A DNA stretch of 37,286 nt, taken from contig RDOE01000031.1 of NCBI GenBank assembly GCA_011364975.1, positions 1-37,286 of the forward strand, given 5' to 3'. Origin of the DNA: Promethearchaeota archaeon. Its GTDB lineage: Archaea > Asgardarchaeota > Lokiarchaeia > Sigyniarchaeales > SOKP01. Shown piece after piece: positions 34,650-36,667 of this stretch (its first letter is position 1; every line of letters begins with the position of its first letter). A program made the translations under genes and the position numbers. The notes beneath the pieces were generated by a model. That model did no database searches and was not told the origin of the DNA. It saw nothing but the letters and a program-made list of their open reading frames with translations.

Positions 34650-35723
34650 TCATAACTTATATCTTAAAATAGCAATTATTTCTCCTAAATCAATAATTTG
34701 TTGGCCTGTAGGATGTTCACTACTTAAAATGTTGATAGTTCCCCCATTCCTTTCTACATCAGTTATGATCTCTTCAACTTGTAGCTTTTTTTCGTTAGAA
34801 ACTCCTCTAATTACAATATCAGCAACAAAAAGCTCCTTTATGGCTCCTTGTTTGCCTGCATTTGCTATTTCATCAAACCCAATGGCGATTAGATCAGGTT
34901 CGGTACTAAATAAAGTAAGAATTTCTTCAATTTTCTCTGCTTCTTGAAGAACTTTGACCTCTTCCCTAAATTTTAAAAGTTCTTTGGATTTTAAGGTTTC
35001 TAAAATCGCAGTCTCTAACCCTGAGCTTGCATGAATACTATATATTTTTGGTAAATAAGGAGGATTAAATTTTTCCTTAATATATTGGATAAATTTATCA
35101 CGTGTATTTCCAGGACCACATATTATTAATACATCAAATTGAGTAGATTTATAGTTCTCTTCTATAACCTTGTTGATGCTAAGAAAGAATTCTTCCAGAG
35201 CTTTATTTCGATGTGTTTGTTCATACCTTTTTCCGGGGATATTAGTTTTTATTGTGGTGATCTTAGTATGACTATAATTCGTTACTAAATCAATAGTTGC
35301 CAATCCCGTTTCAATCGCCACTATAAGCATAATGAAGTTCACTTTAAACTTCGAGGCTTCTTTTAATCTTTTTAGCTCACTTTTCAACCATTTTTCTTTA
35401 GAGATGATTAATATATCCCCGATTTCGACATTAAAAGTATGATAGGTCCCATAAGATACGAAATCTTCAGGACCTTCTAAGATTGTCCCTTTAATTCTTA
35501 GACGATTTGAAAATTCGTGAAATGCTAATGATTCCACATTTAATTTCAAGTACATTGACTTTCTTTCCCCTTTTGAACCTTCTTTCAAAATGACTCGGCG
35601 TTGTGTTCTTGAACTAACTTTATCGCTCTTTGTTATAACATTATAAAGAGTCCAAAGATCATTTAAATCTTCTACTTTAACCGTAATTTCTTCAAATTTT
35701 TTATCAATTTCTAAAATCTTCAC
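34650..35723 (-). CDS. pelA: Pelota/Dom34 ribosome rescue factor
   Basis: EDLNDLWTLYN, FHEFSNRLRIKG, YHTFNV, IPGKR, CGPG, SSEHPTGQQI..LGEIIAILRY motifs. Confidence 0.95.
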   Translation of the reverse strand: MKILEIDKKFEEITVKVEDLNDLWTLYNVITKSDKVSSRTQRRVILKEGSKGERKSMYLKLNVESLAFHEFSNRLRIKGTILEGPEDFVSYGTYHTFNVEIGDILIISKEKWLKSELKRLKEASKFKVNFIMLIVAIETGLATIDLVTNYSHTKITTIKTNIPGKRYEQTHRNKALEEFFLSINKVIEENYKSTQFDVLIICGPGNTRDKFIQYIKEKFNPPYLPKIYSIHASSGLETAILETLKSKELLKFREEVKVLQEAEKIEEILTLFSTEPDLIAIGFDEIANAGKQGAIKELFVADIVIRGVSNEKKLQVEEIITDVERNGGTINILSSEHPTGQQIIDLGEIIAILRYKL

Positions 35724-35867
35724 GGTTTATTTCATAATTCCGAGGATATCTTTAAATAATAATTAATTTAATGTTTAGTAAAAGATTAATGTTCCTTGAT
35801 TTTGTATCTTTATATTAATTTTCATTAAAATAAAAAAAAGATAAAAAAATTCTTACTTAAAAAAATT

Positions 35868-36023
35868 TTAATCATTTGCTCCTAAAGCTTGTTTTAATTT
35901 ATCTAATTCTTCCATCCGTTTTTTTTTCTCTTCTTCACGCTTCTTTAGCTCTGATTCGTCAACTTTTTGGAGCGATACACCTTTTTTAATTTGCTCTTGC
36001 AATTCCTTGTCTAAGGGCGCCAT
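35868..36023 (-). CDS. Unannotated 51-aa protein with a WH2-like motif
   Basis: Manual translation MAPLDKELQEQIKKGVSLQKVDESELKKREEEKKKRMEELDKLKQALGAND*; GAGGTG just upstream of the ATG; T-rich tract after the stop. Confidence 0.7.
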   Translation of the reverse strand: MAPLDKELQEQIKKGVSLQKVDESELKKREEEKKKRMEELDKLKQALGAND

Positions 36024-36217
36024 TACACCTCAACACCTTTTTAAATTATCTCGTGTGTAAATATTAATCAATTTTTATACACAAATTATAATAGAATTTA
36101 TTTATAAGCTTACCGAAAAATTAGTTTTTTTAAATTAATGCGTATATAATGACTAAAATTCATTTTTAGTTATTACTTGCAAAATACAATTGATAAAATG
36201 AAAAATTTAACCTAAAT

Positions 36218-36667
36218 CTAAATTTCTAATTCCATTAAATACGCATTTTCTTTATGACGATAATAATTCTCTACTTTCTCAGTTATTTTGAAGTTAAATT
36301 TTCTATACAATTTTTGAGCAGTAACATTTTTGGTATTCACATTTAATATAATTCGTTTTATATGAGCTATTTTTTTTATTTTGTCTAACGTAAAATCTAA
36401 TAAAACGCTTCCATACCCTTGGCCCTGAAATCTCTCATCAATAAGAAAGTTAATAATATTCACACTATCTATACTATCCTGTAAAGCTATAGCGAAACCT
36501 ATAATTCTTTTTTGATCATCAGTTATTTTTAAAAAAAGAGTATTACGAATTATTAAACTTCGCAAAATTTCTTTCGAAAAAGCATCCTTATTGAATGTAT
36601 ATTTTTCTAAATTATATATTTCATCTAAGTCCTCAATGATAACATTCTCAACCCACATAATACTCAT
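36218..36667 (-). CDS. GNAT N-acetyltransferase (RimI/Ard1-like)
   Basis: DLDEIYNLEK..F, FQGQGYGSVLL, N..AQKLYRKFNF, ENYY...ENAYLM motifs. Confidence 0.9.
   Translation of the reverse strand: MSIMWVENVIIEDLDEIYNLEKYTFNKDAFSKEILRSLIIRNTLFLKITDDQKRIIGFAIALQDSIDSVNIINFLIDERFQGQGYGSVLLDFTLDKIKKIAHIKRIILNVNTKNVTAQKLYRKFNFKITEKVENYYRHKENAYLMELEI

Follow-up and report, generated by a model that had tools for sequence, protein, structure and literature searches.

Eukaryotic peptides of the WH2 type drive the buffering of actin monomers and the nucleation of filaments. In this study, we ask whether a short open reading frame of a Promethearchaeota archaeon encodes an archaeal protein of this kind. 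The ORF lies near one end of the window, by which we mean the whole stretch of 37,286 nucleotides that was analysed, and a first-pass annotation made from the sequence alone had taken it for a missed gene encoding a stand-alone WH2 actin regulator. In the available portions of two reports, the actin regulators described for Asgard archaea are profilins and gelsolins (PMC9433394; PMC13716822).

The ORF was found as that annotation had described it, on the minus strand, 51 aa long and containing both quoted strings, DKELQEQIKKGVSLQKVD and RMEELDKLKQAL. Its absence from the gene track holds for the window only, because the NCBI records of relatives carry the gene as a hypothetical protein. The features of the locus are collected in Table 1.

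Table 1. Features at the micro-protein locus, with positions in the window
Feature	Position	Strand	Basis
TATA-like, putative promoter element (TATAAT..TGTGTATAAAAA)	36072..36093	minus	50-70 nt upstream of start; conserved
Shine-Dalgarno-like GGTG motifs: GAGGTG (-8..-3), AGGTG (-15..-11)	36026..36038	minus	sequence
51-aa micro-protein gene, ATG to TAA	35868..36023	minus	ORF, 125 homologues, dN/dS 0.15, orthologue in proteome
WH2-like segment, residues 4-21 (LDKELQEQIKKGVSLQKV)	35961..36014	minus	invariant I12/G15/L18/K20; aligns to WH2 domains
Predicted long charged C-terminal helix, residues 23-49, core REEEKKKRMEEL	35877..35957	minus	conservation, AF2 model
Two oligo-T tracts, archaeal terminator-like signal, between gene and Pelota	35838..35866	minus	sequence

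A word-seeded search with the 51-aa protein returned its homologues at 47-88 bits, nearly all of them 48-52 aa long and named 'hypothetical protein' in records labelled Promethearchaeota, Lokiarchaeota, Hod- or Hermodarchaeota. An alignment and profile (A1) was built from 38 of the 125, chosen across the identity range, and in it I12, G15, L18, K20, R29, E32, K35, R36, E39, L40 and K44 are invariant. Selection was analysed over 46 codons at the 12 best-scoring loci of the genus (L005-L016), where variable columns by codon position numbered 16, 6 and 39 and pS was 0.48-0.90 against a pN of 0.09-0.14. The dN/dS value given in the table is the median of the 44 pairs, out of 66, for which dS was finite, the remaining pairs being saturated or identical. 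The gene is under purifying selection. Across the genus loci the micro-protein is 73-85% identical, compared with 64-70% for the neighbouring Pelota, 45-55% for the GNAT acetyltransferase and 52-61% for the radical-SAM protein.

The 55/69-aa protein of genome G051 is identical in every residue to UYP46132.1 of Lokiarchaeum ossiferum. In the published proteome this orthologue ranks 519th, with values in 15 of 15 replicates (PMC13716822, Supplementary file 13), and the translation for which the first-pass annotation had suggested a proteomic check was thus detected in the orthologue. The 51-aa ORF is a real, conserved gene that is translated in an orthologue. The A1 profile matched 39 of 41 relatives, including every one of the 24 from the genus. 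Of 301 genomes drawn from across the phylum, 71 gave a match, and these comprise the genome of the window, 63 of 68 genomes of its own family and 6 of 7 of a second family of the same order. Outside these two families 1 of 225 genomes matched, weakly and in a 267-aa frame, and searches covering other Asgard families did not turn up the module. By these profile matches the module appears to belong to one order of Loki-type Asgard archaea. In the genome of the window the micro-protein gene is single-copy and stand-alone, with one A1 match.

The predicted layout of the micro-protein is that of WH2 domains and beta-thymosins. An AF2 model built with A1 (mean pLDDT 87.1) contains a helix at residues 6-14, a coil at 15-22 (pLDDT by block 83-91 in this region) and a helix at 23-49 (pLDDT 91-95), so that a short N-terminal amphipathic helix, with conserved hydrophobic positions L4, L8 and I12, is followed by an extended non-helical stretch, as is asked of a WH2 domain. 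The counterpart of the LKKT/V-type motif reads L18-Q-K20-V21. Its L18 and K20 are invariant; position 19 is Q, E, D or K in A1, the first basic residue of LKKV being replaced by Q, E or D, and position 21 varies between V, P, A and L. Of the pattern IxxGxxLxKV, for which conservation had been expected, IxxGxxLxK is therefore invariant across the 38 rows, while the final V is not. In the HMMER alignment, the motif is spaced just as it is in the N-WASP units.

Scoring against the Pfam WH2 model (PF02205), which had been proposed as a check, failed: the window ORF gave no match at E<=10. The gathering cut-off of 23.1 bits was reached neither in A1, where 1 of 38 members matched at E 0.059, nor among 18 divergent orthologues of the second family (A4), where 1 matched at E 0.067. 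A six-frame Pfam scan of the genome of the window found no WH2 match over the cut-off, and Pfam Thymosin (PF01290) had no match at E<=10 in the window ORF or in the 38 A1 and 18 A4 members. Profile searches gave a different picture. When 177,635 distinct PDB sequences were searched with the A1 profile (38 rows), the best match was the N-WASP tandem-WH2 construct 3m3n_W (E 1.1e-5, a sum over three units that singly reach i-E 3.5-28 only), and the MIM WH2 domain 2d1k_C (E 0.13) and N-WASP 2vcp_D (E 0.17) were among the six best. All three align without gaps to micro-protein residues 4-25. Searching 1.84 billion representative proteins with A1 gave 64 matches at E<=1e-3. P0178 (E 2.8e-4) has a proline-rich stretch and three units and scores 45.8 bits with Pfam WH2 against the cut-off of 23.1, and P0177 (E 2.4e-4) scores 23.3 bits, also over the cut-off. 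By its invariant IxxGxxLxK, the family profile thus retrieves solved and Pfam-confirmed WH2 domains. The hhalign comparison of A1 with P0178 gave a probability of 27% over 17 columns, and the likeness to WH2 is therefore motif-sized. In the ESM Atlas, the first match with a named family was a cluster in which 26% of members bear Thymosin (score 0.85), which we treat as a lead only.

The second helix is a different matter. Its invariant residues in the 38 A1 rows are the seven from R29 to K44, and no similarity to any known family was found for it by Pfam or by PDB profile search. The A4 orthologues retain K35, R36 and E39 as invariant, and often lose the Gly; on this comparison the charged helix is the best conserved element of the family, and one with no WH2 counterpart. 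Against the PDB, the A4 profile did not retrieve WH2 domains (3m3n_W at E 8) and found designed helical proteins only. The stretch EIE..DKSK.xKV of the divergent orthologues gives us the impression of a thymosin; this candidate was rejected, as A4 produced no Thymosin match in either the PDB or Pfam.

The module also occurs in larger proteins. P0141 and P0142 carry an N-terminal profilin domain, then 2-4 modules, then a C-terminal domain of no recognised family. Their N-termini match Pfam Profilin at E 2.5e-4 and 1.5e-3, both below the cut-off, and in the PDB they match 5zza_P (E 5e-8), 5yed, 5zzb and 7pbh ('Profilin'). We take 5zza, 5yed and 5zzb, whose PDB titles read 'Uncharacterized protein', to be Asgard profilins. 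Judged by these matches, the module is fused to Asgard profilin, and this fusion links the module family to actin. A 444-aa protein with a profilin-like N-terminus (L026:128-1462, genome G012; the record has a masked run) lies beside a Lokiactin paralogue (L026:1495-2640), and a comparable frame of 420 aa that matches Profilin weakly is present in the genome of the window (G000:C121:19091-19300).

Other fusion partners are unrelated domains. Leucine-rich repeats, a module and a RING-like zinc finger are combined in P0157, P0161 and P0163; in these and in P0174 the order is leucine-rich repeats, one module, then a RING-like or double zinc ribbon or a ribbon-helix-helix domain. Ribbon-helix-helix domains are joined to the module in P0164, L020:1431-1787 (G012) and L021:1381-1773 (G014), the latter two being CopG/NikA-like and terminating in one module copy. 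These proteins could be DNA-binding regulators that respond to actin, provided that the module senses it; this is pure speculation. Finally, some ten modules in a row make up proteins of about 480-500 aa (P0128; L017:2309-3748; L034:1495-2961), which occur in 8 of 14 second-family genomes and in none of 131 of the window's own family. The 488-aa member in G051 has 10 module matches at permissive thresholds, with a period of about 45-48 aa. Pfam found nothing relevant in the 55-aa orthologue of genome G038 or in a 479-aa repeat protein, and a search with the latter returned 4 close relatives only, none of them named.

A published Lokiactin co-immunoprecipitation bears on the repeat protein. The G051 locus reads RNAP subunit D, SHMT, three unnamed genes, the 488-aa repeat protein, a YggS-type PLP protein and a thermosome subunit, an order that matches GNAMCCOK_04080 to GNAMCCOK_04087 in the table of PMC13716822, and the mass computed for the 488-aa protein is 56.45 kDa, compared with 56.41 kDa listed for GNAMCCOK_04085. 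We identify the two with each other from gene order and mass, because exact look-up and a word-based search for the 488-aa protein gave no accession. GNAMCCOK_04085 was enriched with Lokiactin at a log2 ratio of 4.53 (adjusted p 2.1e-3; 44 peptides, 70.5% coverage, 366 spectra), next to 4.44 for the bait 'Actin' GNAMCCOK_03343 and 3.97 for the best gelsolin, B35_2DGel1 (PMC13716822, Supplementary file 13, CoIP sheet). It is missing from the named-protein list and from the available text of that paper (PMC13716822). The enrichment of the ten-repeat relative with Lokiactin matches that of the bait, which links the module family to actin, and the relative is a candidate for direct binding. Thymosins are abundant as sequestering buffers, and abundance was compared on this basis. 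The micro-protein orthologue UYP46132.1 was itself not significantly enriched (log2 0.57, p 0.042, adjusted p 0.105), and its iBAQ lies about 11-fold below that of Lokiactin (18.17 vs 21.60 log2; PMC13716822), which is low for such a buffer. Entries at the top of the list include acryloyl-CoA reductase (9.18), Lys-tRNA ligase (7.72) and GTP cyclohydrolase (5.11) (PMC13716822); with these three metabolic and translation enzymes ranked higher, the list contains non-specific entries, and with such unlikely partners at its head enrichment alone is no proof. Small unnamed proteins significantly enriched with Lokiactin were GNAMCCOK_03085 (4.41 kDa, log2 2.66), GNAMCCOK_03900 (6.54 kDa, 2.53), GNAMCCOK_02393 (9.24 kDa, 2.67) and GNAMCCOK_02875 (9.51 kDa, 3.96) (PMC13716822).

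As for the actin of the host itself, the 99%-complete, 200-contig assembly from which the window comes yielded no canonical Lokiactin, a gene that scores 440 bits in the congeners G007, G012 and G016; an assembly gap is the likely reason. The best actin-family gene of this assembly, on contig C142 (L002:1480-2643, minus; Pfam Actin 292 bits), is 44% identical to the Lokiactin of a congener and has one in-frame TAG, at which its orthologue in G007 (L027) has Tyr. The TAG may stem from a sequencing error, reflect a nonsense allele or be a case of recoding.

Taken together, the motif-level similarity, the predicted anatomy, the profilin fusion and the co-precipitation of the tandem relative argue for a WH2-like reading. 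Against it count the unsuccessful Pfam scoring, a conserved helix foreign to WH2 domains, the fusions to other partners and the fact that the micro-protein itself was not significantly enriched. On balance we lean, with reserve, towards the micro-protein being a candidate archaeal actin-binding module of the WH2/beta-thymosin-like kind. Of the stand-alone WH2 regulator proposed at the outset, the real, conserved and stand-alone gene with its invariant IxxGxxLxK stands, and membership in WH2 as Pfam defines it does not. We infer that the micro-protein itself would bind actin, at a particular site and with an effect on polymerisation, in the following way. The gene would encode a free-standing copy of a WH2/beta-thymosin-type module of about 45 residues, whose short amphipathic helix (with L4, L8 and I12) would insert into the hydrophobic cleft at the barbed face of the actin monomer. 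Like an LKKT/V motif, the extended G15-x-x-L18-x-K20 would follow the surface of actin upwards, and either actin or a partner might be contacted a second time by the charged helix 23-49. The micro-protein would in this way buffer or escort monomeric Lokiactin, and relatives may employ the module again after a profilin domain or in tandem arrays of about ten, by which several actin subunits could be held. According to the portion of the source available, the actin residues contacted by the WH2-like motif of the gelsolin linker are conserved in Loki actins (PMC9433394).

The alternative that survives best is that the module is a general unit of interaction or oligomerisation built on its charged helix, with a partner other than actin, the WH2 appearance being due to chance or convergence and the signal of the ten-repeat protein to the stickiness of charged repeats or to cross-reaction of the antibody. 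Conservation is strongest in helix 23-49 and not in the WH2-like part, the module is joined to such unrelated companions as ribbon-helix-helix domains, leucine-rich repeats with a RING-like zinc finger and an unrecognised C-terminal domain, and the A4 profile finds designed helical proteins only, all as this alternative would have it; the missing Pfam WH2 and Thymosin matches, the unenriched orthologue and the odd proteins heading the co-precipitation list fit it as well. A plain coiled coil, however, would have no need of invariant I12, G15, L18 and K20 in a predicted non-helical segment, and WH2 domains come first in unbiased searches. The module is, moreover, fused specifically to Asgard profilin, and the repeat protein, with 44 peptides, reached the enrichment of the bait. 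We regard this alternative, including its account of the co-precipitation, as possible but doubtful.

Far less probable is a translation- or ribosome-associated micro-protein functionally linked to its downstream neighbour Pelota, a case for which the neighbourhood has to be considered. The same-strand neighbours are a radical-SAM fragment, a GNAT acetyltransferase (36218-36667), Pelota (34650-35723, with eRF1 domains 1-3) and a radical-SAM protein, and the order radical-SAM, GNAT, ORF, Pelota, radical-SAM is preserved in 11 of 11 genus loci (GNAT in 10 of 11). This constancy around the ORF and Pelota speaks for a link, as does a protein that is small, highly charged and moderately abundant. 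The upstream GAGGTG and the downstream T-rich tract noted in the first-pass annotation were both located, at 36026-36031, 2 nt ahead of the ATG and with a second AGGTG at 36034-36038, and as oligo-T tracts within about 30 nt after the stop. The proximal GAGGTG does not recur across the 12 orthologous loci of the genus; the distal AGGTG/AAGTG, 10-16 nt upstream, recurs in most of them, and a similar TATA-like element at the same distance and T-rich tracts after the stop are present in 12 of 12. The TATA-like element may act as a promoter, and with these conserved promoter-like, AGGTG/AAGTG and oligo-T elements the gene looks like its own transcription unit. An operon with Pelota was rejected because of these promoter-like and terminator-like elements and because the linkage is lost outside the genus sample. 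In the other family the Pelota linkage is missing, three loci there adjoining a ZPR1-like gene, and Pfam showed no similarity of the ORF or the 38 members to any ribosomal or translation family. We therefore consider a tie to Pelota very unlikely.

The GNAT gene (minus strand) lies directly upstream of the micro-protein gene in those 10 genus loci, and a GNAT 32% identical to it is also found upstream at the G051 locus L043. It could be an N-terminal acetyltransferase for the Met-Ala/Ser start of the micro-protein, a candidate role.

The first-pass annotation had also offered a split-off WH2 plus central-helix module, and a WCA-like fragment activating an Arp2/3-type nucleator would be of this build. 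The WH2-like segment is indeed followed by a second helix with an amphipathic end (M37, L40, V43, L47), but this helix resembles no known family, and nothing was found in favour of a split-off module. The acidic Trp tail is absent from the 51-aa sequence, as had been remarked, and Arp2/3 subunits are not among the Lokiactin partners reported in the available part of the source; we find the proposal scarcely credible. A chance ORF in AT-rich intergenic DNA, to which its shortness, its lack of a Pfam family and its absence from the supplied track might point, was already ruled out by its 125 homologues, the proteomic detection of an orthologue in every replicate, the median dN/dS with its codon-position pattern and its presence throughout the genus and nearly all of the family sample, and has practically no probability left.

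To return to the WH2-like reading, a bolder form of it is that the module is truly related by evolution to eukaryotic WH2 and beta-thymosin and represents a third, pre-eukaryotic class of Asgard actin regulators besides profilin and gelsolin, deployed in free form, fused to profilin and as a protein of ten units holding Lokiactin subunits or filaments. As a whole we hold this only tentatively and think it rather unlikely. Literature searches on WH2 and thymosin in Asgard, Loki- and Promethearchaeota and on Lokiactin immunoprecipitation found no free-standing WH2- or thymosin-like protein described, and searches on accession and locus names found no description of the repeat protein or the family. 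If a WH2/thymosin-like module does exist in one order in free, profilin-fused and ten-fold tandem form, archaeal actin regulation would be richer than described, and an easily synthesised 51-residue peptide would allow the origin of a core eukaryotic motif for actin binding to be tested. The published Lokiactin pull-down contains a top match carrying the module that goes unremarked in the available text (PMC13716822).

Among known systems, the closest Asgard parallel is the D1-D2 linker of two-domain gelsolins, in the available portions of its descriptions a segment of the LKKT type (PMC9433394; bioRxiv 10.1101/2025.11.30.690169), seen on actin in crystal structures (PMC9433394). That motif, in the same portions, comprises four residues only (LVDV/LKDV in Loki) and is calcium-dependent, whereas here an independent helix-plus-motif module stands without a gelsolin domain. 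With beta-thymosins (PF01290) the micro-protein shares a free-standing form of about 45-55 aa and, in the model, two helices, one at either end, with an extended LKKT-like stretch between them, and the module has multi-repeat versions as thymosins do. It differs in a much longer C-terminal helix that is unrelated in sequence, in the missing Pfam Thymosin match and in the level of the L. ossiferum orthologue, about 11-fold below actin and unlike that of a sequestering buffer. WH2 domains (PF02205; N-WASP, WAVE, WIP, MIM, Spire, Cordon-bleu) share with it about 17 residues of amphipathic helix, Gly and Leu-x-Lys-(Val), and both occur alone, in tandem and beside profilin-related functions. Each unit here is, however, followed by a conserved charged helix of 27 residues absent from WH2 domains, the Pfam model is not matched, the first basic residue is Q, E or D, the host is an archaeon and actin binding is putative. 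The tandem-WH2 organisers of the Spire and Cordon-bleu type may find a counterpart in the 488-aa relative, which with its 10 permissive module matches and its log2 ratio of 4.53 in the co-immunoprecipitation is a candidate for direct binding to Lokiactin.
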